Below the pieces are notes generated by a model. The model worked only from the letters and a program-made list of their open reading frames with translations, made no database searches and was not told where the DNA came from. DNA of 32,000 bases from an uncultured Clostridia bacterium (lineage in GTDB: Bacteria; Bacillota; Clostridia; Christensenellales; JAWKQI01), in the NCBI GenBank assembly GCA_964453645.1, contig CAYVRJ010000001.1:106301-138300 (forward strand). The letters run 5' to 3'. Below, in pieces: positions 4,277 to 23,505 of the stretch. Both the position numbers and the translations under genes were made by a program. How positions within the stretch are numbered: the stretch's first letter is position 1; each line of letters starts with the position of its first letter.

Positions 4277-5085
4277 TCGAAGTAAAAAACCTCACAAAAA
4301 CCTACGGCGTTCAGCGGGGTATAGAAAATATAAACTTTTTCATGGGCAAAGGTGAGGTAGTGGGCTTGCTGGGACTAAACGGTGCCGGCAAGTCTACGAC
4401 CATGAATATACTCTCGGGGTGTATGGGGGCATCGTCGGGTCATGTAACCATCGACGGCATCGATCTGTTTGCAGAGCCCGCAAAAGCCAAGGTTAAAATT
4501 GGCTACCTCCCCGAGATACCCCCCCTGTATCTGGATATGCGGGTGTGTGAATATTTAAACTTTGTGTTTGAACTCAAAGGTGTTAAAAAACACTCCTTTG
4601 ACAGCATTTGCACACAGGTGGGGATAGACGGCATAAAAAAACGGCTGATAAAAAACCTGTCCAAAGGGTATCGCCAGCGGGTGGGGTTGGCAGCAGCTCT
4701 GGTGGGCGATCCGGAGATTCTCATTTTAGACGAACCCACCGTGGGGCTGGACCCAACCCAAATCATAGAGATTCGTAATTTAATCTTAAGCTTGGGTAAG
4801 AACAGGACAGTCATCCTCTCCTCCCATATTTTAAGTGAAATTGAAGCTGTGTGCAGCAGAGTTTTTGTAATTCATCAGGGTAAACTCATCACAGACGATA
4901 CCCCGGAAAATCTTGTGCAAAAGCTCAACCCAAAAAACGTATGCCTTGCGCAGATCGAAGGAAAGTTGGAGGACGTGCAAAAGGCACTGCTCGATGCGGG
5001 TATATCCGTTCAGTCCCTTCGCCCTGCAAACATTTCCTTTGAAGAGGCATTTTTAAATGTAGTTGGAAAGGGGGAAAGGCTGTGA
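4273..5085 (+). CDS. ABC transporter ATP-binding protein (ABC-2/GldA-like)
   Basis: Walker A GLNGAGKST, signature LSKGYRQR, Walker B ILILDEP. ATG 4273 overlaps the upstream stop as ATGA. The ORF-track start at 4213 is an upstream in-frame extension. Confidence 0.92.
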   Translation: MIEVKNLTKTYGVQRGIENINFFMGKGEVVGLLGLNGAGKSTTMNILSGCMGASSGHVTIDGIDLFAEPAKAKVKIGYLPEIPPLYLDMRVCEYLNFVFELKGVKKHSFDSICTQVGIDGIKKRLIKNLSKGYRQRVGLAAALVGDPEILILDEPTVGLDPTQIIEIRNLILSLGKNRTVILSSHILSEIEAVCSRVFVIHQGKLITDDTPENLVQKLNPKNVCLAQIEGKLEDVQKALLDAGISVQSLRPANISFEEAFLNVVGKGERL

Positions 5086-5786
5086 TTGCTGTTTTTAAGC
5101 GTGAATTTATGGCATATTTTCGTTCGCCGCTGGGTTATGTGTTTATTGCGGCGTACTATTTGCTGTCCGGATTTTTCTTCTTTAACTACAACCTATACGG
5201 CAACTCCACCGATATGCGCTCCCTGTTTTCGGTGTTGTTCACCGTGACATTGTTTTTAATACCCATCCTCACCATGAGGCTTTTTTCAGAAGATAAGCGG
5301 CAAAAGACCGATCAAATATTACTCATGTCTCCCGTTTCATCCACAGGTATTGTCCTTGGGAAATATTTGTCCGCCATTTGCGTCTACTTTATTGCCATGG
5401 CTGTGACACTCATCATGGCCGTAGTGCTTTCCATCGTCTCGCGCCCCGAGTGGCCGGTGATTATCGGGCACTTTATCGGGTTGTTTTTGCTGGGTTGTGG
5501 ACTCATTGCCATTGGCATGTTTATATCCTCTCTCACCGAAAACCAAATCATTGCGGCAGTGGGTGGGTTTGTGACAGGGTTTTTCCTCATGCTCTTAAAC
5601 TCCTTAGCAGCTATGATCGACACAAAATTGCTCTCCGATTTCGTATTAAGCCTTTCCTTTCAGCAGCGGTATCAATCGTTTACACTGGGAATCTTAAACG
5701 CCTCGGACATTTTCTTTTTTATCAGCGTGGTTGCGATCTTTGTGTTTTTCACAGTCTTTCGGTTTTATAAGCGCAGGATAGAGTAG
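5082..5786 (+). CDS. ABC-2 type transporter permease (GldF-like)
   Basis: 234 aa with about 6 predicted hydrophobic helices. GTG start overlaps the ATPase stop (GTGA). SD aaggggga upstream. Confidence 0.8.
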   Translation: MIAVFKREFMAYFRSPLGYVFIAAYYLLSGFFFFNYNLYGNSTDMRSLFSVLFTVTLFLIPILTMRLFSEDKRQKTDQILLMSPVSSTGIVLGKYLSAICVYFIAMAVTLIMAVVLSIVSRPEWPVIIGHFIGLFLLGCGLIAIGMFISSLTENQIIAAVGGFVTGFFLMLLNSLAAMIDTKLLSDFVLSLSFQQRYQSFTLGILNASDIFFFISVVAIFVFFTVFRFYKRRIE

Positions 5787-5794
5787 AGGTGTAC

Positions 5795-7222
5795 ATGAAG
5801 AGTAAAAAAAGTTTCCATATAGTACTGGTGATTTTGGTGGTAGCGTGTGTGTTTGTATTAAACATCGCAGTGGGGGTGTTTACCCAGCGCTACAAATTGG
5901 AGGCAGATCTCACCAGCGCACAAATATACAGCATATCCGACAAAACGGCACAAGCCCTCACTTCCTTAAAAAAGCAAGTGGACATCAACATGTTAGCTAA
6001 GGAAGAGACGTTTGTCTCCACCTCTGCGTATAACGCACAGGCCAATGAAATATTAAAACAATTTGATGGCGTTTCACAAAAGGTGACACTGCATTATATT
6101 GATTATGTAAAAAACCCTGGATTTGCAGCCAATTATCCCGATGTATCCATGAAACACGGGGATATCTTGGTGGTGTCGGGGGACAACCATTCCCTTGTGA
6201 AAACCGAAGATTTATTCAATTACGCCACGGGGCAGGGGGGGCTGGCGATTGCTTCCTCTAAGGCCGAAGAGGCCGTGCTCAGTGCGGTGCTCAGCGCCAC
6301 CAGCGACAAAAAGCCCTTGGTGTCCGTGGTCACAGGCCATGGGGAATACACCATGCAAAGCTTTGAGGAGCTGCTCAAGCGAAACAACTACGAGTTGACA
6401 TACGAAAACTTATTGGTGGGGGGCATTAGCAGCGAAGCAGCTTTTGTTGTGCTCATCGCACCCAAAACCGACCTCTCCCCCGAGGAGCTGAAGAAACTGG
6501 ACAGCTTCCTTGAAAACGGTGGGTTATACGGCAAGACCTTGTATTACTTTGCAGATATTTCCCAGCCAACGCTGCCGAATATCGAAACGTTTTTGGCAGA
6601 GTGGGGGCTGCGCATTCACTTAGGTTCAGTGTTTGAGACGGATGAAACGAAGGTATATAACTATCAGCCATTTTATGCAGTGGCCGAGTATGTGGACTAT
6701 ACCTACGCCGATATGTTGCTTACTCAAAACAAACCCTTGCTCATGCCGCTGTGCCGCCCCATTTCTGCCCTGTTTACCAGCAAGGTGGACTACACCACCA
6801 AGGTGTTGACCCAGTTTTCTAAAACCAGTGGCATTCGCCCCGACGATGCGGACGAAAACTTTACTGCCGAAATGGCAACGCAGCGGGGCCCGTTTAGTGC
6901 ATGGATGATATCCACCCACTCGGTGCGGTCGGGAGAAGAGATTAAAAAATCCAACGTGGTGTTGTCCGGTTCCACGGCAATGCTGGACACCTATGCCATG
7001 GACAACGCTTCCTTTGCAAACGCCCAGTACTTGATCAATTTGTTTAACGATCTGGCGGGCAGAGAGGATGTCATACAAGTAACCCCCAAGACGATCACGG
7101 GTAACAGCTTAAATTTAACCCAGAGCACTGTGGATATCATTGGTTCCGTCTTTGTGTTCGTATTACCCCCTGCCCTCCTAGTTCTGGGGCTGATCGTTTG
7201 GCTGAGGAGGAGACACACATAA
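5795..7222 (+). CDS. GldG-like ABC transporter auxiliary protein (ABC_transp_aux family)
   Basis: N-terminal TM helix (IVLVILVVACVFVLNIAV), a large extracytoplasmic domain, and a C-terminal TM helix followed by a basic tail (LVLGLIVWLRRRHT). This is the GldG architecture. Start is ATG 5795, with GTG 5789 as the alternative. Confidence 0.7.
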   Translation: MKSKKSFHIVLVILVVACVFVLNIAVGVFTQRYKLEADLTSAQIYSISDKTAQALTSLKKQVDINMLAKEETFVSTSAYNAQANEILKQFDGVSQKVTLHYIDYVKNPGFAANYPDVSMKHGDILVVSGDNHSLVKTEDLFNYATGQGGLAIASSKAEEAVLSAVLSATSDKKPLVSVVTGHGEYTMQSFEELLKRNNYELTYENLLVGGISSEAAFVVLIAPKTDLSPEELKKLDSFLENGGLYGKTLYYFADISQPTLPNIETFLAEWGLRIHLGSVFETDETKVYNYQPFYAVAEYVDYTYADMLLTQNKPLLMPLCRPISALFTSKVDYTTKVLTQFSKTSGIRPDDADENFTAEMATQRGPFSAWMISTHSVRSGEEIKKSNVVLSGSTAMLDTYAMDNASFANAQYLINLFNDLAGREDVIQVTPKTITGNSLNLTQSTVDIIGSVFVFVLPPALLVLGLIVWLRRRHT

Positions 7223-7224
7223 AC

Positions 7225-8634
7225 ATGAGCAAACAGGCAAAGACAATTTTTATACTGGGTGTGGTGCTGTTCGTGGCAGCCGTTGTCACCGTCATCGCAC
7301 TGACAATACCCGAAGTGAATGAACAAACCCAAGACCAACCTGTGCTGCTGGTGAATAAAACCATCAACGATGTGGCACGGGTGAATGTAACCAACAAGCT
7401 GTGCACCTATTCCGCCTGGCGGGAGGGCAACGGTTATACATTAGAGGACATTCCCCCCGAGAGCCTCAACATTGAATATTTAGGTATGCTGCTGGACGAG
7501 AGCAGCAAGATTGAATATGTGCGCGAAGTGGGCAGGGGAAACTTTGCCGACTACGGGTTAAACGACCCCGAGGCCACGGTGGACATTCAGTACACCGATG
7601 GGCAGGAAATGACACTGCTCTTAGGAGACCGGGAACAGTTGTCCGACGGACGGTATTTTGCGGTGAAAGGGGGAGAGGACGTCTATCTCATGGACAACAG
7701 CCGCTCCATTCGCTTCACCATGGACATTAAGAAATATATCGACTACGTGATTATTCCCCCAAGGGTGGAACCGTCGGTGATGGGTGCAATTTTAGATATT
7801 TCCTTTGAGGGTAAGGAATTTGAAAAACCCATCCGCATTCGTTCCATTGCCGGGGGCGACCCGGAGGTTGTGTCTCGTGCAGCCAGCTTTGGGGTTACCA
7901 CCCACATCATGGAAAGTCCCAACCTTCACGGGGTGGACTTAACCCAGGCAAACCAAATCTTTGGTTCCCTCACGGGTATGATCACCGATGGTGTCCTCGC
8001 ATACAATTGCAGCCAAGAGGAGCTTGCAAAGTATGGGTTAAACGACCCACGGCTCACCGTGCGCTACACCTACAAAAACGGCAAGGATGCAACCCCCGAG
8101 GAATTTCTCCTCAAAGTAGCAGACTATCAGGGCACCGAAGTGATGACCAAAAACGACGAGGGTATCGTCTATACAATATCCGAAGCACCCTTTACCAGCG
8201 CCAGTTATGAAAAATTAGTGGCAAAGCGGTTTTTAATGCCCATCATATTGGACGTTTCGGGAGTGGAAATTAAAACCCCCAATGAAACCTATCAATTTGA
8301 ACTGTTGGGTGAGCAGAGTAAGGATCTATCCGTTTTATTAAGTGGCAAACCGGTGGACACAGCACTGTTTCGCACGTTTTATAACTTGTTGGTATCCATT
8401 GACCACGACGGACGTTTGGTTCAAAATACAAAGACCAGTGGGGAACCCATCCTCACCATCACATATCGGTATAGAGATAAAACAAAGGGGGATGATACCA
8501 TGGAGTTTTACCCCGGCAGCTTGCGGCGCACCCTCGTTTCGGTGAACGGGGTGAGTGAGTTTGAAACCAACGAAAAGTTTCAAACAGAGATTTTAACAGA
8601 ATTAAACAAACTAATAAAGGAGACACAGCAATGA
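7225..8634 (+). CDS. DUF4340 domain-containing membrane-anchored protein
   Basis: N-terminal TM helix (IFILGVVLFVAAVVTVIALTI) and repeated YGL(N/D)DP segments (ADYGLNDPEATV, AKYGLNDPRLTV) typical of DUF4340, which usually follows GldG-like genes. ATG 7225 lies 3 nt after the upstream stop. TTG 7198 is possible. Confidence 0.65.
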   Translation: MSKQAKTIFILGVVLFVAAVVTVIALTIPEVNEQTQDQPVLLVNKTINDVARVNVTNKLCTYSAWREGNGYTLEDIPPESLNIEYLGMLLDESSKIEYVREVGRGNFADYGLNDPEATVDIQYTDGQEMTLLLGDREQLSDGRYFAVKGGEDVYLMDNSRSIRFTMDIKKYIDYVIIPPRVEPSVMGAILDISFEGKEFEKPIRIRSIAGGDPEVVSRAASFGVTTHIMESPNLHGVDLTQANQIFGSLTGMITDGVLAYNCSQEELAKYGLNDPRLTVRYTYKNGKDATPEEFLLKVADYQGTEVMTKNDEGIVYTISEAPFTSASYEKLVAKRFLMPIILDVSGVEIKTPNETYQFELLGEQSKDLSVLLSGKPVDTALFRTFYNLLVSIDHDGRLVQNTKTSGEPILTITYRYRDKTKGDDTMEFYPGSLRRTLVSVNGVSEFETNEKFQTEILTELNKLIKETQQ

Positions 8635-10500: not shown

Positions 10501-11682
10501 TTAGGGCTGATAGATTTCTATCGGCTCTTTCTTTTTGCGGTTCATCACTAAAAAGATGGTTCCTCCAATGAGAGCGGGAATGCCGGATATCATCAGCATG
10601 CTGTTGATACCCATGGTTTCGGATAAAAATCCAAACAGCGGGTTTCCCACCATCTGGGAGATGCTGAGTGTGGCTTGGTAGATGAGGGCAGCCCCCGATA
10701 GGAACTTTACGTCCACGTGTTTGGCAATATAATAAACCACGCCGGGCACGAAGAGGGCAAAGGAAATGGCTTGCAGTGCAACAAACACCCACACGAGAAA
10801 TACGTTGGATGCCAAAGAGAGCGCAATGGAGCGAATGAAATAACCCACCATGCCAAAACCCAGCAGTTTGGATACGCCAAATTTATTCTTGAGTTTGGTG
10901 AACCCCAGCATCACCCAAAACTCTGCAAAGGCCATGATGAAATAGGCAATACCCACTTCCGACTGATTTCCCCCCAGATGTTGAATCAGCAGGGGGGTGA
11001 AGGTGGCCATGGAGACAAAAGTTAAATAGGACAAAAAGGCTGTGACTAAAAGGAGCACATATTTTTTGTTGCCAAAGAGATAGGATGCCGACTTGCGGAT
11101 GGTGATGTGCGTGGCATTTTCGTGCACTTGGGGGTTGGGGATTTTAAGAATCACGGTGAGGATGGTGAGGAACACCAAGATCATTGCATAAATCGCCAAG
11201 TGATTTCCAAAAGACGAAAACAACTGGCCCAGTACAATGGCAAAAACAGCGTATGTTAAAGAACCAATGCTGCGCACCCGGCCGTAGTCTAGCTTCACCT
11301 TTTGCTTTTGCAGCTTAGTGATCCAGGAATCGATAATACCCGTGAGAGACTGGGTGGTACCCAAAACAACCACCGAAAAACCCACAATAAAGGCGGGAGC
11401 TTCATAGAAGAAAAAGAGCAGGGGCAGCCCCGCAGTGCCCACCAGCAGCACAATGGCGATCATTTGTTTGATTTTGTTGAACTTATCCGACAAATATCCA
11501 AAGACCGGCTGACAGATAAAACAACTGATGGCTGTCCACATTAAGGCGATGCCAATGCTAAAATCCGAATATCCGAAACTCTTTAAAAATACCGTATAAT
11601 ATCCGCAAAAAATGAGTATCACAGTAAAATATCCGCCCATGAGGACGGAAAATCTGCTCGTCAATCCCTTTACTTCTTTCAA
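10501..11682 (-). CDS. MFS transporter (12-TM, LacY/oligosaccharide- or nucleoside-H+ symporter-like)
   Basis: 393 aa, hydrophobic throughout, with GYLSDKF after TM2 as in sugar/nucleoside MFS symporters. TTG start at 11682 with SD GAGGAG 6 nt upstream. Confidence 0.8.
   Translation of the reverse strand: MKEVKGLTSRFSVLMGGYFTVILIFCGYYTVFLKSFGYSDFSIGIALMWTAISCFICQPVFGYLSDKFNKIKQMIAIVLLVGTAGLPLLFFFYEAPAFIVGFSVVVLGTTQSLTGIIDSWITKLQKQKVKLDYGRVRSIGSLTYAVFAIVLGQLFSSFGNHLAIYAMILVFLTILTVILKIPNPQVHENATHITIRKSASYLFGNKKYVLLLVTAFLSYLTFVSMATFTPLLIQHLGGNQSEVGIAYFIMAFAEFWVMLGFTKLKNKFGVSKLLGFGMVGYFIRSIALSLASNVFLVWVFVALQAISFALFVPGVVYYIAKHVDVKFLSGAALIYQATLSISQMVGNPLFGFLSETMGINSMLMISGIPALIGGTIFLVMNRKKKEPIEIYQP
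10506..10536 (+). terminator. Putative intrinsic terminator of the 14-10485 operon, embedded in the 3' end of the convergent MFS gene
   Basis: GCTGATAG-ATTT-CTATCGGC (8 bp with one G.U pair) followed by TCTTTCTTTTT. Begins 21 nt after the pfkB-like stop. Confidence 0.55.
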
Positions 11683-11711
11683 TGGCCTCTCCTCTTCTAG
11701 TAACTGACAAC

Positions 11712-11740
11712 ACTATACCACACAACACGTCTTGTTTCAA
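11712..11740 (-). promoter_or_regulatory. Sigma-A-type promoter for the MFS gene
   Basis: On the minus strand: TTGAAA, 17 nt, then extended -10 TGGTATAGT. Read directly from the sequence. Confidence 0.55.
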
Positions 11741-11784
11741 CTAAAAATATGTGCCGTAAAAAGGCATAAGAATCTTCAAATTAC

Positions 11785-11813
11785 TTGATAATTCGACAGT
11801 TCAACAGTATAAT
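11785..11813 (+). promoter_or_regulatory. Near-consensus sigma-A-type promoter for the radical SAM / GDP-sugar operon
   Basis: TTGATA (11785-11790), 17-nt spacer, TATAAT (11808-11813). About 37 nt upstream of ATG 11850. Confidence 0.65.
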
Positions 11814-11849
11814 ACAGGAATGGTTTATTAAAACAGAAGGGTTTCTGTG

Positions 11850-13757
11850 ATGAAAAATGTGTATTTAGCCCAGCCCAATTATCTCTATGGCAACAACGCT
11901 TACTTACCCTATTCGGCAGGAGCTATTGCTGCCTATGCCTTTGACGATCCCCAAGTGGCAGCGCACTATGCCTTGCCCCCCATTCTTTTTTTGCGCAGAG
12001 ATATTGCAAAGGTTGTGGAAGAACTGGACAACCCATGTGTGTTTGGGTTTTCAAATTATGTCTGGAATTTCGAGTACAACTTGTTGCTTGCAAGGGCTGT
12101 GAAAGCTGCTTATCCCGATTGTCTCATCCTCTTTGGAGGGCATCACATTCAAACCAATTCGGTGGAACTATTAAAAGACCACCGTTTTATCGATATACTC
12201 ATCTACGACGAGGGAGAAAAACCCTTTAGAGACATACTCAAGGCACTCCTAAACGGACAAGGGTTTGAAGACATTACAAACATCGCATACCGCAAAGACG
12301 GGTTGATTGTTGCAAACCAACTGGAGCGCTGGGAGGATACGGACTATCCCTCCCCCTACCTCACCGGGGTTTTTGACAACATCATCAGCGATACAAACGT
12401 TCACTTCACGGCAACTTTAGAGACCAACCGGGGGTGCCCGTTCTCCTGTGCCTACTGCGATTGGGGCATTTATAAATCCAAACTCAGAGCCTTTCCCATG
12501 GAGCGGATTGCAGAGGAAATCCAGTGGTTTTCAAAGAACCGAATCGAACTGGTCATGGGTGCGGATTCCAACTTCGGCATTTTGGAGAGAGATGTAGACA
12601 TTGCCAAAATGTTGATTAAAGCCAAGAAAGAGACGGGGTATCCCCAAAAGTTTCGGGTGTCCTACACCAAAAACAGCAACAAAACGGTATATGCCATCAA
12701 TGAGGCCTTAAACAACTCAGGTATGAGCAAGGGAGCAACGCTGTCCTTCCAAAGCTTAAGTGAAAGGGTGCTTCAAAATATCAACCGTAAGAACATGGAT
12801 ATGGGTATGTTTTCAGAGCTGCTCAAGCTCTACAATGCAAACAATATTCCCACCTACTCGGAAATTATCATGGGATTGCCGGGGGAGACCTATGCATCTT
12901 TTGTGCAGGGCATTGATACCCTGTTGGAAAATGGCCAGCACAACTCCATTAATATTTATAACTGTGAACTGCTGCCCAATTCCCTCATGGCCTCAAAGGA
13001 ATATATGCAAACCCATGCGATACAAACCATAAGAACGCCCCTAAACCAATACCACTGCGAACCCCAATCGGGGGATATCACCGAGTATTCCAACGTGGTG
13101 GTGAGCAACAGCACGATGACCATGGACGATTGGGTATTGTGTAACGTCTTTTCTGTGGTGGTCCAGTGTTTCCACTGTTTGGGGCTGTTGCAGTACATCG
13201 CAGTATTTGCCCGGCACAGGTACGGCGTACCCTACCACAAGTTTTACAGCCAGTTGCTCTCCTTTTTACCCGGATGCACAGGCATTGGTCTTATTTTCAA
13301 TAAAATTGTGAACCAAATAAAGGGCATCTCCTCGGGAAGCACTTGGGAGTATACAAATCCAAAGTTTGGTAACATCACTTGGCCCTTGGACGAGGGTGCT
13401 TTTTTGGAGTGTATGTGTCTCATGGACAGTTTTTATGAGGAACTCACCCCCTTCTTTGAGACGATGATACCCAATCGTGAGGAATTGCAGGAACTGATTC
13501 GCTATCAAAAGGCCTTGGTTAAGAAACCCTTTGATCGGGACTTCCGCTTGACGTGTGTTTACGACTTTAAGGATTATTTCGAAAAGGTGTATCTGGGGTC
13601 TGAAGTTGAACTTCAAAAAAAGTTGTGCACTTATGAAGTTTGTGTGGGAAAGACATACCACTCCTTTGCGTTATACGCAGTGGAAGTGGTGTGGTACGGC
13701 CGCAAGGGTGGAACGAATATATATCAAACAAATTATTTGCATGAAGGCCTTGCGTAA
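11850..13757 (+). CDS. B12-binding-domain radical SAM protein (class B-like), substrate unknown
   Basis: CPFSCAYC = CxxxCxxC at nt 12435-12458. The N-terminal ~170 aa have the flavodoxin-like pattern of cobalamin-binding rSAM enzymes (VFGFSNYVWNF, LILFGGHH). Followed by a long C-terminal region of about 400 aa. SD agaaggg. Confidence 0.8.
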   Translation: MKNVYLAQPNYLYGNNAYLPYSAGAIAAYAFDDPQVAAHYALPPILFLRRDIAKVVEELDNPCVFGFSNYVWNFEYNLLLARAVKAAYPDCLILFGGHHIQTNSVELLKDHRFIDILIYDEGEKPFRDILKALLNGQGFEDITNIAYRKDGLIVANQLERWEDTDYPSPYLTGVFDNIISDTNVHFTATLETNRGCPFSCAYCDWGIYKSKLRAFPMERIAEEIQWFSKNRIELVMGADSNFGILERDVDIAKMLIKAKKETGYPQKFRVSYTKNSNKTVYAINEALNNSGMSKGATLSFQSLSERVLQNINRKNMDMGMFSELLKLYNANNIPTYSEIIMGLPGETYASFVQGIDTLLENGQHNSINIYNCELLPNSLMASKEYMQTHAIQTIRTPLNQYHCEPQSGDITEYSNVVVSNSTMTMDDWVLCNVFSVVVQCFHCLGLLQYIAVFARHRYGVPYHKFYSQLLSFLPGCTGIGLIFNKIVNQIKGISSGSTWEYTNPKFGNITWPLDEGAFLECMCLMDSFYEELTPFFETMIPNREELQELIRYQKALVKKPFDRDFRLTCVYDFKDYFEKVYLGSEVELQKKLCTYEVCVGKTYHSFALYAVEVVWYGRKGGTNIYQTNYLHEGLA

Positions 13758-13766
13758 AGATTGAAA

Positions 13767-13810
13767 ACGATTTGTGCCGTATGTGAAACGGCGGAATGGA
13801 GTTTATTTTG
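13767..13810 (+). promoter_or_regulatory. Conserved leader element, copy A (upstream of gmd)
   Basis: 33/38 identical (37/44 through the start codon) to 18357-18400, in exactly the same register relative to the start codon. Contains hairpin GCCGT-N7-ACGGC and the SD GGAG. Confidence 0.7.
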
Positions 13811-14815
13811 AAAAAAGCACTGATTACAGGCATCACCGGGCAAGACGGTTCATATCTTGCCGAACTGTTGCTGAAAAAAAACTATGAGGTCCACGGCATT
13901 GTGAGGAGAGCCAGTGTGTTTAACACCGAGCGAATCGATCACATCTTAAAGGACATTCAGACGTACCACGGGGATCTCACCGATTCCTCCAACCTAAACC
14001 GCCTCATGGAAAAGATTGAGCCCGACGAAATTTATAACCTTGCGGCTCAGTCCCACGTGAAGGTGAGTTTTGAGGTGCCCGAGTACACCGCCGAGGTAGA
14101 CGCTGTGGGCACCCTAAAAATGCTGGACACATTGTCTGAACTGCGAACCCACACCCGGTTTTATCAAGCCTCCACCTCCGAATTGTTCGGTGGGTTTCCC
14201 GAAACGGCACCCCAGAGCGAAACAACCCCTTTCACTCCCCGCTCTCCCTATGCTGCCGCAAAACTCTATGCCTATTGGGTCACCGTGAATTTTCGCGAGG
14301 CCTATAATCTCTATGCCTGCAACGGCATATTGTTTAACCACGAATCTCCCCGCAGAGGCAAGACGTTTGTGACAAAAAAGATCACCATGGCGGTGGCCGA
14401 CATCGTTAGGGGCAAGCAGGAAAAGCTCACCCTGGGCAACATGGATGCAAAGCGGGACTGGGGTTATGCCAAGGACTACGTATACGCCATGTGGCTCATG
14501 TTACAACAGGAAAAACCCGACGACTACGTGATTGCAACGGGGGAAACCCACTCTGTGCGAGAGTTTGTGGAAGCTGCCTTTCGTTATGTGGACATCACCA
14601 TTGAGTGGCAGGGCAGCGGTGTGCATGAAGTGGGCAGAGATGCTAAGACGGGAAAGATTTTAGTGGACATAAACCCAAAATATTTTCGGCCAACCGAGGT
14701 GGACTGCCTGCTGGGCGATGCCACAAAAGCAAAGGAACAGTTGGGTTTTGTGCCCAAAACCTCCTTTGAAGAACTGGTGCACATCATGATGGAGTACGAC
14801 CTTCATGAGAGATGA
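13808..14815 (+). CDS. gmd: GDP-mannose 4,6-dehydratase
   Basis: [43 protein letters not shown] and [13 protein letters not shown] are canonical Gmd motifs. TTG 13808 gives the usual MKKALITG N-terminus, with GGAG 6 nt upstream. In-frame ATG 13796 is the alternative. Confidence 0.93.
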
Positions 14816-15740
14816 AAAAATTTATTTGGCGGGGCACACCGGCTTGGTGGGAAGCGCCATATTTAAGGCCCTTAAGGACAGGGGATATACAAATATTCTC
14901 ACCGCTTCCCACAGGGAGCTGGATTTAACCAGGCAGGCGGACACAGAGGCTTTTTTCGAGCGGGAAAAGCCAACATACGTCATATTAGCTGCTGCAAAGG
15001 TGGGGGGCATTGGGGCGAATATGCAGAGTATGGCCGACTTTGGTTATATCAACGCCATGATCGGGGCAAACGTCATACACAGCGCCTACGCATACGGAGT
15101 AAAAAAACTCTTGTATTTGGGCAGTTCGTGTATATATCCAAGGCAGTGCCCCCAGCCCATGCGGGAGGACTGCCTCCTAACGGGTATTCCCGAACCCACC
15201 AACGAAGCCTATGCCCTCTCCAAAATATTGGGGCTTAAGCTTTGCGAGTACTACAACACCCAGTACAACTGCAACTTTATCAGTGCCATGCCCTGCAACA
15301 TATACGGTGAGGGGGACAATTTCGACGAAAAGACGTCCCACGTCATCCCTGCCCTCATGCAAAAGATGCACAACGCCCATGTTCGGGGGGAGGATAGCGT
15401 TCTCATTTGGGGCACGGGCAGAGCTAGACGGGAGTTTTTACACGTCTTTGACTTGGCTTTGGCCTGTATCTTTCTGCTGGAAAACTACGATGACAAACAG
15501 TTTGTCAACGTGGGTGCTGGGCATGACGTGACCATTGCCCAGTTGGCAGATATGATGCGCCAGGTGGTGGGCTTTCGGGGGGAAATCGTCTTCGATACCT
15601 CCAAACCCGACGGCATGATGAAAAAGTGTGTGGATACGTCTAAAATCAATGGCCTGGGGTGGAAGAGTGAGATCGATCTTATGAATGGCCTTAAGCAGAC
15701 GTACGCTTGGTTTTTAGAAAATATTGTGAGGTATACATGA
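14805..15740 (+). CDS. fcl: GDP-L-fucose synthase family epimerase/reductase (Fcl, or its paralog GDP-L-colitose synthase ColC)
   Basis: About 45% identity by eye to E. coli Fcl: [43 protein letters not shown]. Overlaps gmd by 11 nt and colD by ATGA. Confidence 0.88.
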
Positions 15741-16888
15741 AAAAATATCCGTTGGCGTCGGGGACGTGGGGACAAGAGGAACGGGAAGCAATCCTTCGGG
15801 TGATGGACAGGGACATGTTCACCATGGGTCAAGAAGTGTTAGAGTGCGAACAGGCCTTTGCTAAACAGTTTGGTGCAAACTATGCGGTCATGTGTAATTC
15901 GGGTTCGTCTGCAAATTTGTTGGCAGTGGGAGCTATGGTCTATTCGGGCAGATGGCAGCGGGGAGACGAAATCATCGTTCCCGCAATTGCATGGGCAACG
16001 ACGTACTATCCCCTCTATCAATACGGGCTGAAGCTTCGGTTTGTGGATATCGACAGGGAAACCCTGAACATCAGCATCCCCGCCTTAAAAGAGGCGATCA
16101 CCCCCAACACCAAGGGGCTGGTTGCAGTGAATCTCCTTGGCAACCCCAACGAGTTCAATGATATTGAACGTATTTGCAGGGATGGGGGGATCACCTACTT
16201 CGAGGACAACTGCGAGAGTATGGGTGCCAAATACAAGGGCAAATATGCGGGAACCTTTGGGCTTATGGGCACGTACAGCTCCTTTTTCTCCCACCACATC
16301 TCCACCATGGAGGGTGGGTTTATCACAACCGACGATGAACTACTCTACGACATGCTCAAGTGCCTGCGGGCACACGGCTGGACGAGGAATTTAAATAGTG
16401 ACAGCGTGTTGTTTGAGAAGGGGGATGAATTTTACGAACTGTTTCACTTTATCCTTCCGGGTTACAACTTTCGCCCCATGGAGATGCAAGGGGCCATCGG
16501 GAAAGAACAGCTCAAGCGTTTGGAAGGGTTTGTAACCCTGCGGCGGCAAAACGCACTGTATTTTAAAGAGAAGTTTAGGGACTTACCCCTCACCGTGCAA
16601 CAAGAGACGGGGGAAAGCTCCTATTTTGGACTGGCATTTCTTTTAAACAAACCCGGCAAACGCAATGCACTGGCAAAAAAGCTAATGGACAGCGGCATTG
16701 AGTGCAGGCCGGTGATGACGGGTAATTTCACCAAAAATCCCGTGATTCAATATATGGAGTTTAATATTTCGGGCACCCTGGACAATGCGGATTATGTCCA
16801 TGAAAACGGCATATTCCTTGGCAACCACAGCTACGACTTAAGGCAACACATCGACTATGCCTACGACGTAATTTGCGGAGAACTGTGA
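15737..16888 (+). CDS. colD: GDP-4-keto-6-deoxy-D-mannose 3-dehydratase (ColD-type, DegT/AAT-fold)
   Basis: Colinear with E. coli O55 ColD as I recall it (YPLAS-TW, MFTMG, FEDNCESMGA, RAHGWTRN, LPGYN-RP-EM, QQETGESS-FG, IECRP). The PLP-lysine position is His (SFFSHHISTMEGG, His187, nt 16295-16297). Confidence 0.82.
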   Translation: MKKYPLASGTWGQEEREAILRVMDRDMFTMGQEVLECEQAFAKQFGANYAVMCNSGSSANLLAVGAMVYSGRWQRGDEIIVPAIAWATTYYPLYQYGLKLRFVDIDRETLNISIPALKEAITPNTKGLVAVNLLGNPNEFNDIERICRDGGITYFEDNCESMGAKYKGKYAGTFGLMGTYSSFFSHHISTMEGGFITTDDELLYDMLKCLRAHGWTRNLNSDSVLFEKGDEFYELFHFILPGYNFRPMEMQGAIGKEQLKRLEGFVTLRRQNALYFKEKFRDLPLTVQQETGESSYFGLAFLLNKPGKRNALAKKLMDSGIECRPVMTGNFTKNPVIQYMEFNISGTLDNADYVHENGIFLGNHSYDLRQHIDYAYDVICGEL

Positions 16889-16891
16889 AGA

Positions 16892-18337
16892 ATGGATTAT
16901 AATATGAGCAGTTTTGTATTTGGCACCGGTGGGATCCGGGAAGTGATGGGGCAAGGCGAAGGGAAGATGAACGACGATGTGATTATTTTGGCATCTCTGG
17001 CGCTTGCCCGGTTTCTCTTTGAAAAGTTTGAGAACCCCAAAGTTTTGGTGGCCTACGACAGCAGAATCAATTCCAAGGAGTGGGCGAACCTCACGGCAAA
17101 GGTGTTGGTCTCCAAGGGGGTTGAGGCCTTTGTTTTTGATCGGCTGTGCCCCACCCCGGTGCTCAGCTTTGCTATTTTACATCTGAATTTATCGGCAGGG
17201 GTGGTGATCACCGCCAGCCACAACACAAAGGAATACAACGGTTATAAGGTGTACGGGCACACCGGGGTGCAGTGCGTGCCCCAAGAGACCAAACAAATAA
17301 CAAAACACGGCCAGCAGTGTAGCGTCTTTGATTATGTTGAGCCAGAGGCAGACATTCAAACGGTTGGGGAGGACGTGCTGCGTGCCTTTTATGATGCCGT
17401 GCTCTGTGAATCTGTCTTTGAAGAAACTGCAACTGCAAGTGAACTAAACGTTGTGTTCACCCCCCTCCACGGAACGGGTGGCCTGCCCGTTCTCACAGTG
17501 CTTAGAGAAGCGGGATTTCGTGATGTGTTGGTGGTGGAAGAACAGTTTGAACCCGATGGCAATTTCCCCACCGTGGATTCCCCCAACCCCGAGGAACCCT
17601 CCGCTCTAAAAATGGCCATTGACTTGGCGAATCAGACGGGTGCGGATATAGTCATTGGCACAGACCCGGATTGCGACAGGGTGGGGGTTGCGGTGCGCCA
17701 CATGGGTAAGTACGTGCAGCTCAGCGGCAACGAGGCAGGGGCACTGCTCACCGGGTATCTCCTTTTCAAAAAGAGCGGCAACACCTTGGTGAAAACAGTT
17801 GTGTCGGGAGAGCTGGGCGGGCAAATTGCCCGGCAAAACGGACTAAACGTAATCAATACTCCCACTGGGTTTAAATACATCGGCGAACAGATGGAAAGCT
17901 TAGGCGAAGACTTCTTTTTTGCCTACGAGGAGAGCTTTGGTTATTTGGGCGGGCGTTATGCCCGGGACAAATGCGGGGTGGGCGCATGTCTGCTCCTGTG
18001 CCAATGTGCGGCACACCATAAACAACGGGGAAAAACCTTAGTGGATGCCCTAAACGAACTCAAAGCAACCTATGGCCACTACCAAGACTTTGGCCAGAGT
18101 ATACGGCTTGACCCCGGTCAACAGGAGAAAGTGATTGAACGGTTAAAAAGCTTGGATGGAATTTTGGAGGTGGAGGAGGCAGGTAGTTTCTTAAAACTGC
18201 ACTTTCACAACGGATGGATTGCCGTTCGGCCTTCGGGTACCGAACCAAAACTCAAGCTGTATTACAGCGCCAAGGGAGAGAGCCATGAAGCGGCTCAAGT
18301 AGCACTGGATGAACTAAAGAAAAGAGTAGGGGCTTAA
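16892..18337 (+). CDS. manB: Phosphomannomutase/phosphoglucomutase (alpha-D-phosphohexomutase)
   Basis: Active-site loop VVITASHNTKEYNGYKVY (Ser at nt 17216-17218; the usual Pro after SHN is Thr). Metal loop GTDPDCDR, sugar loop AYEESFGY, phosphate loop RPSGTEPKLK. The symbol is assigned from operon context. Confidence 0.8.
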   Translation: MDYNMSSFVFGTGGIREVMGQGEGKMNDDVIILASLALARFLFEKFENPKVLVAYDSRINSKEWANLTAKVLVSKGVEAFVFDRLCPTPVLSFAILHLNLSAGVVITASHNTKEYNGYKVYGHTGVQCVPQETKQITKHGQQCSVFDYVEPEADIQTVGEDVLRAFYDAVLCESVFEETATASELNVVFTPLHGTGGLPVLTVLREAGFRDVLVVEEQFEPDGNFPTVDSPNPEEPSALKMAIDLANQTGADIVIGTDPDCDRVGVAVRHMGKYVQLSGNEAGALLTGYLLFKKSGNTLVKTVVSGELGGQIARQNGLNVINTPTGFKYIGEQMESLGEDFFFAYEESFGYLGGRYARDKCGVGACLLLCQCAAHHKQRGKTLVDALNELKATYGHYQDFGQSIRLDPGQQEKVIERLKSLDGILEVEEAGSFLKLHFHNGWIAVRPSGTEPKLKLYYSAKGESHEAAQVALDELKKRVGA

Positions 18338-18356
18338 CGTGAGAGATTTTTTACGG

Positions 18357-18400
18357 ACGATTTGTGACGTAAGCCAGACGGCGGAATGGAGTTTTTTATG
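18357..18400 (+). promoter_or_regulatory. Conserved leader element, copy B (upstream of manC)
   Basis: Same element as 13767-13810, offset by exactly 4590 nt: ACGATTTGTGaCGTA-N6-ACGGCGGAATGGAGTTT, then 3 nt and the ATG. Confidence 0.7.
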
Positions 18401-19732
18401 AACATAGTATTATTATCGGGGGGGTCGGGCAAGCGGCTGTGGCCTTTGTCCAACGAAACTCGCTCCAAACAGTTTCTTAAATTATTGAGCACAGACAGTG
18501 GGGAAAAGCAGTCCATGATTCAACGGGTGTTTTCCCAGATCAAAGAGGCAGGCCTTGATAAAAGCCTCACGGTGACCACCAGCAGCACCCAGGAGAGTGC
18601 CATCGTTGGCCAAATCGGGGACAGTGCCAACATCGTCATCGAGCCGGAGAGGCGGGACACTTTTCCCGCAATCGCACTGGCGTGTTGTTATTTAAAGTTT
18701 AACAAATGCTTGTCCGACGACGAAGTGGTGATCGTTATGCCCGTGGATCCCTATGTGGACATCGATTATTTTCATAAGTTCCAAGAATTAAAGGACGGTG
18801 TAAACACCAATCAGTACGACATTGTGCTCATGGGTGTGACACCCACCTACCCTTCGGAGAAGTATGGATACATTCAGCCAAAGGCGGGGGGAAGTTTGCG
18901 GGAAGTGGATAGATTCAAAGAAAAACCCACCGTAGCCCAGGCCGAAGAGTTAATTGCTGGGGGTGCACTGTGGAACTGTGGGGTGTTTGCCTTTAAGCTT
19001 GGTTATATGATGAACGTCCTTGCAAAGTATATGGATGTCTCGTCCTATGAAGAGGTGTATGAAAACTATCACCTGCTCAACAAAAACAGTATGGACTACG
19101 AAGTGGTGGAAAAGGCGAAGCGGATTGGCCTCATAACCTACGACGGCAGATGGATGGACATGGGCACGTGGAACACCTTAGCCGAAGAGATGGGTGCAAA
19201 CACCATCGGCAGGGTCACTTTATCCCAAAACTCTAAGAACACCCACGTGATCAACGAGCTGAGCATTCCCGTGGTGGTCATCGGTGCTAAGGATATGATC
19301 GTTGCTGCAAACTACGACGGCATTCTGGTGAGCGACAAGGAGCAGAGTTCCTATTTGAAAGAGTATTTGAGCGATGTAAACAATCGCCCCATGTTTGAGG
19401 AGAGAGCGTGGGGCAGATATAAGGTGTTGGAGCTGTTTTCTTTGGGAAACGGCAACAAATCCTTAACAAAACATTTGTTTGTCAAACAGGGTAAGAAGCT
19501 GAGTTATCAAATGCACAGGCTGAGGCAAGAAATTTGGACGATTATTTCGGGCACAGGTATTTTCACCATGGACGGAATGAACAGTTCGGTGAAGGCGGGA
19601 GACGTGTTCACCATTGACATCGGCAAAAAACACACCATTCAAGCGCTCACAGACTTGGAATTGATCGAAGTGCAACTGGGTAAAGAGTTAGAGGAAAATG
19701 ATATCATTCGCTTTGAGGAGGAATCGATTTGA
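18398..19732 (+). CDS. manC: Mannose-1-phosphate guanylyltransferase with C-terminal cupin domain
   Basis: MNIVLLSGGSGKRLWPLS (GGxGxRLWPLS). C-terminal cupin (LSYQMHRLRQEIWTIISGTG). ATG 18398 has GGAG 6 nt upstream. In-frame ATG 18386 is the alternative. Confidence 0.9.
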   Translation: MNIVLLSGGSGKRLWPLSNETRSKQFLKLLSTDSGEKQSMIQRVFSQIKEAGLDKSLTVTTSSTQESAIVGQIGDSANIVIEPERRDTFPAIALACCYLKFNKCLSDDEVVIVMPVDPYVDIDYFHKFQELKDGVNTNQYDIVLMGVTPTYPSEKYGYIQPKAGGSLREVDRFKEKPTVAQAEELIAGGALWNCGVFAFKLGYMMNVLAKYMDVSSYEEVYENYHLLNKNSMDYEVVEKAKRIGLITYDGRWMDMGTWNTLAEEMGANTIGRVTLSQNSKNTHVINELSIPVVVIGAKDMIVAANYDGILVSDKEQSSYLKEYLSDVNNRPMFEERAWGRYKVLELFSLGNGNKSLTKHLFVKQGKKLSYQMHRLRQEIWTIISGTGIFTMDGMNSSVKAGDVFTIDIGKKHTIQALTDLELIEVQLGKELEENDIIRFEEESI

Positions 19733-20607
19733 AAGTAGTATTGATGGACGGCGGGCTGGGCAACCAAATGTTTCAATATATATTTGCACGGTTTGTGGAA
19801 CTGTATTCGGGCGAACCCGTTTTTATCGACGATGCATTCTTTTTCTACGCAGACTTACACAACGGGTATGAAGTGGAAAAGGTGTTTCCCAACGCAAAAC
19901 CAAGGCTGCTCAGCAAAGAGTTTAGCCCCGGAACGTGGGATCAAATTGTGCAGTATGTAAAGAACGAGGCAGCGTTTCCCGAATTTATGAACAACGGTGG
20001 CAACAATTTCTTTGTTGTTTTTGAAAGTGGCGACATTCGTTATACTGGTAATATGGTGAAAGTGCCAGCCAACCAGTTTACCCCCGATATCGCCATCACC
20101 CAGGGTAATGTCTATTACTTTGGCTATTGGATCAACAAGAGGTGGTTGTCAAGTATTGCAGATTCAATAATGAGGGAGTTGGAGTTTCCGCCCATCCCCG
20201 GTGCACACAACCAAGACTATACAAGGTTGATTGAGAAAACCAATTCCGTTGCAGTACACATCCGCAGGGGAGATTTTGTGGATATAAAGTGGACGTTAGA
20301 GGACTCCTTTTATTTTAACTCCATAAAGGAAATCGCCCATAGGGTGGACAATCCAACATTTTTCATCTTTTCGGACGATCTCAACTGGTGCAGGGAAAAC
20401 AGCGAAGGATTGGGTTTTGAATTTGCAAAGGGAAATCTGGTGTATGTGGAGGGTAACATGGACAAACAAAACAACTATGTGGACATGCAGCTCATGTCTA
20501 TGTGCAAGCACATGGTCATCGCCAACAGTTCCTTTAGTTATTTGGCAGCCCTGCTCAACAGAAATGAAAACAAACTCATTGCCAATCCCACAGCACGGGA
20601 GCTTTAA
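19729..20607 (+). CDS. Glycosyltransferase family 11 (alpha-1,2-fucosyltransferase-like; possible colitosyltransferase)
   Basis: GGLGNQMFQY, HIRRGDF, FIFSDD and ANSSFSYLAALL are the GT11 motifs. TTG start overlaps the manC stop (TTGA), with SD GAGGAGG 7 nt upstream. Confidence 0.88.
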   Translation: MKVVLMDGGLGNQMFQYIFARFVELYSGEPVFIDDAFFFYADLHNGYEVEKVFPNAKPRLLSKEFSPGTWDQIVQYVKNEAAFPEFMNNGGNNFFVVFESGDIRYTGNMVKVPANQFTPDIAITQGNVYYFGYWINKRWLSSIADSIMRELEFPPIPGAHNQDYTRLIEKTNSVAVHIRRGDFVDIKWTLEDSFYFNSIKEIAHRVDNPTFFIFSDDLNWCRENSEGLGFEFAKGNLVYVEGNMDKQNNYVDMQLMSMCKHMVIANSSFSYLAALLNRNENKLIANPTAREL

Positions 20608-20630
20608 ATATATTTTGTAAGGAGTGTCAC

Positions 20631-21983
20631 ATGGAAAAGAAAAAGAGAAAAGGACTAATTTTGATCATACTGCTGGGCCTTGTTGTGGTGATTGCAGGGT
20701 ATTTTTTAATCAACAGCTACATCAAGAGCCTGCCGGTATTTCAGTATGTAAACGGAACAAATACACAAATTGAATATCCCGACGCAAACTTTGCTGTGAT
20801 CAGCGATCTGCACATGTACGACCCTTCCCTGGGCACCGAAGGTGAGGCCTTTGATGAAGTGATGAACAGTGACAGAAAATTGCTGCTCAACAGCGAAGAG
20901 CTGCTGGATCTGGCGGTTGAACGCATTTTGGAATCCAAGGTGGATTTTGTGCTCATCCCCGGGGATATCACCAAGGACGGCGAGGTGGTGAACCATCAAA
21001 TTGCCGCAAACAAGCTGCAAGTCTTGGAGGACAACGGCATTCAGGTCTATGTGGTGCCCGGCAACCACGACATCAACAACCCGGACAGCAAGTCCTTTGC
21101 GGGCAGTAGTGCAACAAACGTGCCCAGCATCACCCCCGAAGACTTTAAACGGGTGTACGGAGGGTTTGGCTACGACAGCGCACTGTTTAAAGACGAAAAC
21201 ACTTTGAGTTACGCAACAGAGCCAATAGAGGGGCTATACATCTTAGGTTTGGACGGTTGCCAATACAATGTGGAAGGCCAGCGGAACCACAGCATCACCG
21301 GGGCGAAATATAACCAATCCACCATCGACTGGATCACCCAAACCGTTGCATATGCCCAGCAAAACGGCAAGGCCGTCATCGTCCTCTCCCACCACGGCAT
21401 TGTGGAGCACTGGAAGGGGCAGAGTTCCCTTCACCCCGAATATTTAACTCACGACTACCGTTATGTGGGTGAATTGTTGGCATCCTACAACGTGCGGTTG
21501 GCTTTTACAGGCCATTACCACGCACAGGACATTGTGCGGGGGGATTTTAACCAAGGTTTTCTCTACGACATTGAAACGGGTTCCCTGGTGACAGCCCCGT
21601 GCCCCGTGCGGTACGTTTCCATTGAAAACGGTGCTGCCACTGTGCGGACGGAAACGCTGGTGGATCAGCTGCACCCAGGCACAGACTTTGAAAAAAATGC
21701 AACGGATTTTGTGAAAAAGACAGTGGTGTTGGAGGCGTTTGCCACCCTTAAGAAATACTTGGTGTCCGACGAAGATGCCAACTACATTGCAAATCTGGTG
21801 GGGGATGCCTTTGTTGCCCACTACAGCGGAAATGAAGATCCAAGCCAGCGCATTATGGTGGATCAAAGTAAACTAAACTTGTGGGGCCAAATAGTCTATG
21901 CAACCCAGGGTTATGCCTTGGATGGCCTGTGGAACGACTTGCCCCCGCAGGACAGGGAGGCAGTGCTGCCGCTCAATCAATAA
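20631..21983 (+). CDS. Membrane-anchored calcineurin-like metallophosphoesterase
   Basis: N-terminal TM helix (LILIILLGLVVVIAGYFLI), then SDLH, GDITKDG, GNHD, SHHG and GHYH metallophosphoesterase motifs. SD aaggag 6 nt upstream. Confidence 0.85.
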   Translation: MEKKKRKGLILIILLGLVVVIAGYFLINSYIKSLPVFQYVNGTNTQIEYPDANFAVISDLHMYDPSLGTEGEAFDEVMNSDRKLLLNSEELLDLAVERILESKVDFVLIPGDITKDGEVVNHQIAANKLQVLEDNGIQVYVVPGNHDINNPDSKSFAGSSATNVPSITPEDFKRVYGGFGYDSALFKDENTLSYATEPIEGLYILGLDGCQYNVEGQRNHSITGAKYNQSTIDWITQTVAYAQQNGKAVIVLSHHGIVEHWKGQSSLHPEYLTHDYRYVGELLASYNVRLAFTGHYHAQDIVRGDFNQGFLYDIETGSLVTAPCPVRYVSIENGAATVRTETLVDQLHPGTDFEKNATDFVKKTVVLEAFATLKKYLVSDEDANYIANLVGDAFVAHYSGNEDPSQRIMVDQSKLNLWGQIVYATQGYALDGLWNDLPPQDREAVLPLNQ

Positions 21984-21998
21984 AGGAATAAACATACA

Positions 21999-22034
21999 GT
22001 CGGCAGGTTTTTAGCCTTGCCGACTTATTTGTTT
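21999..22034 (+). terminator. Rho-independent terminator of the radical SAM / GDP-sugar operon
   Basis: GTCGGCAGG-N8-CTTGCCGAC (9 bp with one G.U pair) followed by TTATTTGTTT. Begins 16 nt after the stop at 21983. Confidence 0.75.
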
Positions 22035-22079
22035 ATAATACATTCATAATAGATTTCCATTATTTTTTTATTTGCATGA

Positions 22080-22108
22080 TTGACTTTTTTACAATAAAAT
22101 CATACAAT
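22080..22108 (+). promoter_or_regulatory. Sigma-A-type promoter for the HD-GYP gene
   Basis: TTGACT (22080-22085), 17-nt spacer, TACAAT (22103-22108), in an AT-rich gap. Confidence 0.65.
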
Positions 22109-22171
22109 ATTATTGACGTTTTTCACCAGAAAGGAATGAGCTTAAAAGGAATGGATAAGGAGAATCAAATC

Positions 22172-23248: not shown

Positions 23249-23256
23249 GAAATACA

Positions 23257-23469
23257 ATGAATCAAAATACGGAAGGTAAGAAGAATAGATATTTTGCCTT
23301 TGTCATTGTGGCATTGGCACTGGCGCTGGTTGTCACTTTAGTCAACGCCATGGGTATTATCCAAGGGTTGACAGAACAAGTGACCAACTTAAGAAACGAA
23401 GTCCACCAACTGCGGGTGGAGATAAACGACCTGGACAACTACATCTACGATTTGGTGCAGCAAAGATAA
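23257..23469 (+). CDS. Small bitopic membrane protein with leucine-zipper ectodomain (FtsL/DivIC-like architecture)
   Basis: 70 aa. TM helix at residues 13-33. Uninterrupted a/d heptad: L38 V42 L45 V49 L52 I56 L59 I63 L66. Starts 8 nt after the HD-GYP stop, with SD TAGGA. Confidence 0.6.
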   Translation: MNQNTEGKKNRYFAFVIVALALALVVTLVNAMGIIQGLTEQVTNLRNEVHQLRVEINDLDNYIYDLVQQR

Positions 23470-23505
23470 TACGTGATTTGTTTTTGATTTTTATGGGGTA
23501 CTGAT

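Follow-up and report, generated by a model that had tools for sequence, protein, structure and literature searches.

What does a cobalamin-binding radical S-adenosylmethionine (SAM) enzyme do at the head of an operon whose other genes appear to build and transfer a nucleotide sugar? The question is raised by a 32,000-nt stretch of DNA (the window) from an uncultured Clostridia bacterium (contig CAYVRJ010000001.1, positions 106,301 to 138,300), in which a 635-aa radical SAM protein, hereafter the rSAM protein, is encoded directly upstream of gmd, the gene for guanosine diphosphate (GDP)-mannose 4,6-dehydratase. Judged by its sequence and modelled fold, the protein is a class B (cobalamin-binding) radical SAM enzyme of the three-domain TokK/ThnK/CysS architecture, and methyl transfer is its predicted chemistry. 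We lean towards the view that it acts on a GDP-linked sugar, C-methylating GDP-colitose, GDP-fucose or one of their precursors, with GDP taking the role that the pantetheine handle plays in TokK. This proposed function is read from fold and genomic context only. A reading made from the letters of the window without database searches (the sequence-only reading) had already suggested that a class B enzyme might tailor either the 6-deoxy- or 3,6-dideoxyhexose or the acceptor of that sugar. The gene neighbourhoods of the ortholog clade now lend support to the suggestion.

The reading frame is open from 11847 or 11850 to 13757 on the forward strand, and the ATG at 11850, with an AGAAGGG ribosome-binding site 7 nt upstream, is its likely start. 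The Pfam scan detected a B12-binding domain (PF02310) at residues 50–129 with 32.9 bits, barely over the cut-off of 32.1, and a Radical_SAM domain (PF04055) at residues 192–353 with 50.2 bits. The open reading frame (ORF), the exact position of the cysteine motif (C196/C200/C203, nt 12435–12458) and the B12-binding domain ahead of the radical SAM core were thus all as the sequence-only reading had described them. Among solved structures, those nearest by sequence are TokK (E 1e-92 over residues 11–483, identity 28–29%) and CysS (E 1e-40). The best NCBIfam model is that of the KedN5 family (NF033712), which comprises methylcobalamin-dependent C-methyltransferases, with 268.5 bits over residues 19–399 only. 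The AlphaFold2 model, built on a 118-sequence alignment, has a predicted local distance difference test score (pLDDT) of 94 and a predicted template modelling score (pTM) of 0.92. In Foldseek comparisons it matched TokK with template modelling (TM) scores of 0.89–0.91 over 648–679 aligned columns that span all three domains, including the C-terminal one, and CysS with 0.77–0.79, as opposed to only about 0.5 for TsrM, OxsB and AprD4; its N-terminal part can likewise be laid over the cobalamin domains of these two enzymes, TokK and CysS. The nearest characterised relatives are therefore TokK and CysS, not GenK, Fom3 or OxsB, which the sequence-only reading had listed, together with GenD1, as examples of the class.

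The TokK paper describes Trp76 beneath the corrin and Trp215 within the active site, two residues that TokK has in common only with ThnK and CysS, as well as Arg280 and Tyr652, which hold the substrate carboxylate, and a channel between the three domains that accommodates the pantetheine arm; its authors called TokK's C-terminal domain unique. In the alignment to TokK, W72 of the rSAM protein corresponds to Trp76, W205, two residues past the third cysteine, to Trp215, and R269 to Arg280. The cysteine triad is kept in all 279 copies of the family that we compared, W72 in 261 and W205 in 262 of them. The position of R269 is variable family-wide (Arg in 119, Gln in 68 and Lys in 35 of the 279 copies), yet all 23 proteins of the window's own clade have Arg there. 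Further residues specific to this clade are D120, T189, G237, I339 and Y401. The C-terminal domain ends in a conserved WYGRKGG tail; every sequence has W615, and at least 90% of them keep G617 and R618.

Class B enzymes need not methylate, and the rSAM protein might instead carry out a rearrangement, ring contraction, C–S or C–C bond formation, epimerisation or dehydration, as do enzymes of the OxsB, ThnL, BchE or AprD4 type. A 2026 review of B12 radical SAM enzymes lists members of the class with such other chemistries, OxsB acts on a nucleotide, and weak NCBIfam matches to the AprD4 and BchE models were recorded for the rSAM protein. We nevertheless regard this alternative as improbable because sequence and fold place the protein far nearer to the methylases TokK and CysS (TM 0.77–0.91) than to OxsB or AprD4, because both of the tryptophans that mark TokK, ThnK and CysS are conserved, and because the best NCBIfam match is a family of C-methyltransferases. 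A role as a maturase of ribosomally synthesized and post-translationally modified peptides, of the SPASM type, was ruled out: the Pfam scan of the protein found neither SPASM nor any other auxiliary-cluster family, there is no conserved C-terminal cysteine, and the 38 nt between the rSAM stop codon and the gmd start leave no room for a peptide gene. A lipid-related role was rejected as well, as neither the motifs expected for it in the protein nor lipid genes among the neighbours were found. On all of these points the sequence-only reading, which had reported no precursor peptide, SPASM-like cysteine pattern or lipid gene nearby, was borne out.

The rSAM gene is the first of eight same-strand genes separated by gaps of at most 48 nt and framed by the best promoter match of the region and its strongest terminator, called at 21998–22025 (Table 1). 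The promoter is the top sigma-70-like match within positions 11500–23600 and lies just upstream of the rSAM gene, and the gap to gmd contains no terminator, in agreement with the earlier placement of the gene between the operon promoter and gmd. The operon is predicted to encode a complete route to GDP-L-colitose. Its DegT-family product was considered as a perosamine synthase, which was ruled out by the match to E. coli ColD (2gms) and by an SHH motif, where the Schiff-base Lys has given way to His; the likely start codon of colD, the ATG at 15737, overlaps the stop codon of the preceding gene as ATGA. The best PDB matches of that preceding gene product, the Fcl/ColC-like reductase, are GDP-fucose synthases (~1e-99), and when ColC was compared with Fcl, the window gene proved 52–55% identical to the fcl genes of loci without ColD; the operon may possibly also yield GDP-L-fucose. 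No counterpart of the membrane-anchored phosphoesterase gene that ends the unit was seen adjoining the rSAM gene in other loci of the clade.

Evidence for a sugar substrate comes from the relatives of the rSAM protein. In a FastTree tree of 279 copies, it falls into a clade of 23 (support 93) consisting of metagenome-derived proteins, except for one copy from the Candidate Phyla Radiation (CPR; locus L038). Nine of the 11 clade contexts available, the window included, contain genes of 6-deoxy- or 3,6-dideoxyhexose synthesis or of fucosyltransferase families, and in five of these nine, gmd, fcl or manC orthologs have the same orientation as the rSAM gene. In the DegT proteins of the window and of loci L093, L100 and L038, the Lys position is occupied by His, which indicates that all of them are 3-dehydratases. 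IQ-TREE, run on 81 rows, gave a tree in which one branch, with a Shimodaira–Hasegawa-like approximate likelihood ratio (SH-aLRT) value of 93, splits the nine copies with a deoxyhexose context from the 28 with a heptose context. The context labels required a single change on this tree, as opposed to 8.2 in shuffles, with none of 500 shuffles as low, a result that is inflated by relatedness and that leaves room for unlabelled rows to fall inside either context group. From these gene contents and trees, the window's clade appears to be a single-copy clade tied specifically to GDP-6-deoxy- and 3,6-dideoxyhexose operons.

Several of these loci have peculiarities of their own. The CPR locus (L038:2958-12912) comes from a Candidatus Magasanikiibacteriota metagenome-assembled genome (MAG), and its transketolase-like gene hints at a two-carbon branched sugar. 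The DegT protein of L100 (L100:5349-6554) is 30% identical to the window's ColD and has AHT in place of the SHH of ColD, with Thr for the second His, and may therefore represent a separate kind of 3-dehydratase. In L095, genes for HMGL-like, 3-dehydroquinate synthase-like, thiamine diphosphate-dependent and short-chain dehydrogenase/reductase (SDR) enzymes lie 3' of the gmd-fcl-manC-GT11-rSAM module (L095:14947-19914).

Beyond this clade, the subfamily is large. At E <= 1e-30, the query matches 1,685 clusters defined at 50% identity; all 150 matches among those listed score E <= 1e-100 and are closer to the query than TokK is, and we found no characterised member of the subfamily. Some members are fusions (P0123, 1283 aa; P0124, 1271 aa; P0002, 1099 aa; and several matches of about 1000 aa), of which some are of double length with two full radical SAM modules and others match only in the C-terminal half, which follows an additional N-terminal part. 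A set of 78 loci from species-representative genomes, mostly Acutalibacteraceae and Oscillospiraceae gut MAGs, encodes proteins 40–47% identical to the query. When the window's gmd, fcl, colD, manB, manC and GT11 genes were searched against these loci by tblastn, no orthologs of gmd, fcl, manB, manC or GT11 were detected within 10 kb, the sole matches being a gmd-like sequence of 22% identity in the CPR locus and four colD-like sequences of 26–29%. De novo clustering of ORFs revealed 248 rSAM copies in 79 loci (window included), in tandem arrays with one to nine copies per locus. Recurrent partners of these arrays are a small GT2 glycosyltransferase (39 loci), an unknown 412-aa protein (32), an HddA-like GHMP kinase (31), an HddC-GmhB fusion (22), a cupin (20) and an SDR protein (19), which by their annotation together make up a pathway to GDP-D-glycero-D-manno-heptose, tailoring enzymes included. 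The 412-aa partner (cluster c2) has no Pfam or NCBIfam match, and the paralogs within the arrays of the gut Clostridia MAGs (L005–L082; e.g. L010, L007 and L067) are diverged, with up to nine per locus.

The lack of gmd, fcl and manC in the 78 loci was considered as a refutation of the sugar link and dropped, since the phylogeny puts those loci in other, GDP-heptose-linked clades. Because these other clades adjoin GDP-heptose genes, the whole subfamily appears to travel with pathways for GDP-manno-type sugars. The proposal in the sequence-only reading that orthologs be checked for linkage to GDP-sugar genes thus has a divided answer: the expected linkage holds in the window's clade and fails in the wider family of 40–47% identity, which is linked to GDP-heptose.

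The same neighbourhoods bear on the point at which the enzyme would act. The same methylase could work after sugar transfer, methylating either a colitose or fucose residue already attached to a cytoplasmic or lipid-linked glycoconjugate or the molecule that serves the GT11 enzyme as acceptor. Genes of the GT11 or GT10 families occur in the window and in four other loci of the clade (L095, L085, L087 and L092), the small GT2 is the most frequent neighbour in other clades (39 of 78 loci), and a channel of the TokK type, which accepts long amphipathic arms, could fit a polyprenyl-phosphate-linked sugar equally well. Still, post-transfer action seems unlikely to us. In L084 and L100 the rSAM gene directly follows manC, and no glycosyltransferase is annotated in the stretches examined, of which that of L084 ends just upstream of gmd. 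Throughout the clade the constant partners are the nucleotide-sugar genes gmd, fcl and manC, while the glycosyltransferases differ in family and position, a pattern that favours action on the GDP-linked sugar. Since ColD is missing from L095 and L084, what is methylated is probably something that fucose and colitose share.

Action on a GDP-linked sugar would mean that a GDP-6-deoxy-L-hexose pathway has taken on a methylase of the TokK/ThnK/CysS type for tailoring. In the proposed sequence of events, ManB and ManC would supply GDP-mannose, Gmd would convert it to GDP-4-keto-6-deoxymannose, and ColD and the Fcl/ColC-like reductase would take this intermediate to GDP-L-colitose, or possibly GDP-L-fucose. 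The rSAM enzyme would then act on one of these GDP-linked sugars, holding the GDP group in the inter-domain channel where TokK holds its pantetheine arm. A first SAM molecule would methylate cob(I)alamin; a second would be cleaved at the [4Fe-4S] cluster to give a 5'-deoxyadenosyl radical, which would take a hydrogen atom from an unactivated sugar carbon, and methylcobalamin would give its methyl group to that carbon. The GT11 enzyme would finally pass the C-methylated deoxysugar to a surface glycan. Ordinary SAM methyltransferases are able to methylate the carbons beside the 4-keto group, where radical chemistry would thus be unneeded, and an unactivated position is the natural candidate for the methylation site. 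Precedents for such a reaction exist in GenK and GenD1, which methylate sugar carbons in gentamicin, and in Fom3, which methylates hydroxyethylphosphonate linked to cytidine monophosphate (CMP). By analogy with TokK and CysS, the enzyme might even extend the terminal C6 methyl group of colitose or fucose iteratively, giving chain-extended or branched GDP-sugars of the 6,7-dideoxy-heptose type or higher, in which case the nine-paralog arrays would constitute a combinatorial system for poly-C-methylated surface sugars in gut anaerobes, with a B12-dependent outcome; we offer this extension as speculation with a small chance of being right.

No paralog of the rSAM gene is present in the source genome, which measures 2.28 Mb and is 92% complete. 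None of 40 genomes of the same order contains an ortholog, so that synteny with relatives was of no use, and gmd is present in only two of the 40, neither of which has the rSAM gene. These counts suggest that the operon is accessory and that the rSAM gene is an optional addition to the pathway. Could the gene, then, merely share the operon promoter and serve a substrate unrelated to the sugar pathway, such as a carrier-bound small molecule, a lipid or a cofactor? The distribution would suit a mobile accessory gene, the characterised relatives all use non-sugar substrates, and sugar genes are absent from the available sequence of loci L083 and L094. Yet the contigs of L083 and L094 end immediately downstream of the rSAM gene, where the sugar genes of the window lie, the adjacency to deoxyhexose genes recurs across gene orders and lineages, and even in a CPR bacterium, and the window's unit includes no genes for carrier proteins, coenzyme A (CoA) ligases, non-ribosomal peptide synthetases or polyketide synthases, or lipid enzymes. 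We therefore consider an unrelated substrate very improbable.

Several observations weigh against methylation of a GDP-linked colitose or fucose. The characterised relatives of the same architecture, TokK, ThnK, CysS and KedN5, use pantetheine- or carrier-linked substrates, and the identity to TokK is low; membership in the KedN5 family was ruled out by score (268.5 bits against a cut-off of 700). The neighbourhoods do not separate the GDP-sugar from the transferred sugar or the acceptor as the substrate. The sample of clade contexts is small and was chosen partly by the length of assembled sequence, and in the wider family the linkage is to GDP-heptose genes rather than to gmd or colD. The existence of gmd-bearing relatives without the rSAM gene implies an optional gene, the role of which is not readable from the core pathway. 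Finally, we know of no report of C-methylated colitose or fucose from such organisms.

A supply of cobalamin for the rSAM enzyme is plausible from the gene content of the same genome. A cobalamin riboswitch (117 bits) precedes genes for BtuF-like and FecCD/BtuC-like proteins (contig 2, L096:1501-3180), and CbiC was not found in the genome at its 92% completeness. De novo B12 synthesis was accordingly ruled against, and corrinoids are probably taken up from outside. Contig 3 (L002:1252-3087, forward strand) encodes another B12-binding radical SAM protein, of 611 aa and unrelated to the first; its best matches, to the HpnJ, BchE and PhpK models, have low scores that all fall well short of the cut-offs.

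In full-text literature searches we found no paper in which colitose, GDP-fucose, GDP-mannose, heptose glycans or O-antigens are linked to radical SAM enzymes of the cobalamin type, and when the 2026 review of B12 radical SAM enzymes was searched by term, polysaccharide, glycan, nucleotide sugar, fucose and capsule did not come up. C-methylation of a surface sugar would be a role not previously demonstrated for enzymes of the TokK type. If the proposal is correct, B12-dependent radical methylation would reach beyond antibiotic, cofactor and lipid pathways into the building blocks of cell-surface sugars, undescribed deoxysugars (C-methylated colitose or fucose) would be expected, and the structure of the surface glycans of these anaerobes would be tied to corrinoid supply. 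Enzymes would also become available for the methylation of unactivated C–H bonds of nucleotide sugars.

The operon is flanked by ordinary genes of a spore-forming Firmicute, including those for SipL, YtxC, Rnf, a penicillin-binding protein, sugar catabolism and an ABC system. A foreign origin of the unit was considered on the grounds of base composition, with no clear anomaly found (guanine plus cytosine content 0.45–0.52, against 0.42–0.53 elsewhere in the window). Window positions 4213–8634 encode what resembles an ABC export module of the gliding type, made up of an ABC ATPase, an ABC-2 permease, a GldG-like auxiliary protein (ABC_transp_aux) and a protein with DUF4340; genes for a DeoC-like aldolase and a ketohexokinase follow.

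Table 1. Features of the window and gene contexts of the other loci of the clade (percentages are sequence identities; rSAM, gene of the predicted cobalamin-dependent radical SAM enzyme)
Feature or locus	Position	Strand	Basis or gene content
Sigma-70-type promoter	11785..11813	+	TTGATA-17-TATAAT, 11/12 consensus positions; consensus match only
Predicted TokK/CysS-type cobalamin-dependent radical SAM enzyme (635 aa, P0001)	11850..13757	+	Pfam, NCBIfam, TokK match, AlphaFold model, Foldseek
N-terminal Rossmann cobalamin-binding domain (about residues 1–165)	11850..12344	+	PF02310 and TokK alignment; contains W72
CX3CX2C [4Fe-4S] motif C196/C200/C203, then D204-W205	12435..12458	+	Sequence and TokK alignment
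C-terminal, mostly helical domain (about residues 420–635), TokK-type substrate-channel domain	13107..13754	+	Model alignment to TokK
gmd, GDP-mannose 4,6-dehydratase	13796..14815	+	TIGR01472, 554 bits vs cut-off 415
fcl/colC-like GDP-4-keto-6-deoxymannose epimerase/reductase	14805..15740	+	NF047922, 442.8 bits vs cut-off 500 (below)
colD, GDP-4-keto-6-deoxy-D-mannose 3-dehydratase	15737..16888	+	E 5.7e-141 to E. coli ColD (2gms)
Phosphomannomutase (manB-like)	16892..18337	+	PGM_PMM domains I–IV
Mannose-1-phosphate guanylyltransferase (manC-like)	18386..19732	+	NTP_transferase and MannoseP_isomer; TIGR01479, 235 bits
GT11 glycosyltransferase (alpha-1,2-fucosyl/colitosyl-transferase type)	19729..20607	+	PF01531, 89 bits; VHIRRGD = HxRRxD motif
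Calcineurin-like phosphoesterase with a membrane anchor, final gene of the operon	20631..21983	+	PF00149; N-terminal basic, then hydrophobic stretch
Intrinsic terminator	21998..22034	+	10-bp stem, 6 G-C pairs, T-rich tail; strongest terminator-like site of the region
L095 (P0024)			gmd 62%, fcl 52%, manC 48%, GT11 39%, then rSAM
L084 (P0005)			gmd, fcl 52%, manC 46%, then rSAM
L100 (P0017)			fcl 55%, DegT, gmd 56%, manC 49%, then rSAM
L093 (P0037)			ColD 48%, fcl-like 41%, rSAM, manC 46%
L087 (P0016)			rSAM convergent with GT2, GT10, GT11, mannose-phosphate isomerase (PMI), manC, gmd 60%, DegT
L092 (P0023)			Glycosyltransferase cluster including GT10 fucosyltransferase and fcl 55%
L085 (P0004)			GT11 43% nearby
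L038 (CPR)			Transketolase-like, SDR, E1/ColD-type DegT, SDR, 4,6-dehydratase, GT2, unknown gene, rSAM, GT2
L083			No sugar genes; contig ends right after rSAM
L094			No sugar genes; contig ends right after rSAM

Among known systems, the closest is that of TokK and ThnK, which alkylate C6 of carbapenems in Streptomyces (PDB 7kdx/7kdy). With these enzymes the rSAM protein shares the Rossmann cobalamin domain, the radical SAM barrel and the large helical C-terminal domain, in addition to the high TM score, the E-value and the equivalents of Trp76, Trp215 and Arg280 given above. Unlike the window protein, which belongs to a GDP-colitose/fucose operon with a GT11 gene, TokK acts on a pantetheinylated carbapenam and is encoded in an antibiotic cluster; the window's unit has no beta-lactam, CoA or carrier-protein genes, all neighbours being sugar genes. 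CysS, which extends an alkoxy group of cystobactamid (PDB 9n1b-d), and KedN5, which takes part in the formation of the isopropoxy group of kedarcidin, are likewise cobalamin radical SAM C-methyltransferases of the same architecture. However, both extend O-methyl groups on aromatic acids, whereas the window operon contains no genes for an O-methyltransferase or for aromatic acids.

GenK, GenD1 and Fom3 resemble the rSAM enzyme by functional analogy only, as class B radical SAM enzymes that methylate a sugar carbon or a nucleotide-linked substrate. They are absent from the sequence and fold matches obtained for the window protein, and they belong to antibiotic pathways rather than to cell-surface nucleotide-sugar operons. 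The canonical GDP-L-colitose clusters of E. coli O55 and O111 (manB, manC, gmd, colD and colC, with a colitosyltransferase of the GT11 type) have the same set of pathway genes as the window and, to our knowledge, carry no radical SAM gene. In the window, by contrast, such a gene leads the operon, and the pathway resides in a spore-forming Firmicute instead of a Gram-negative O-antigen locus.

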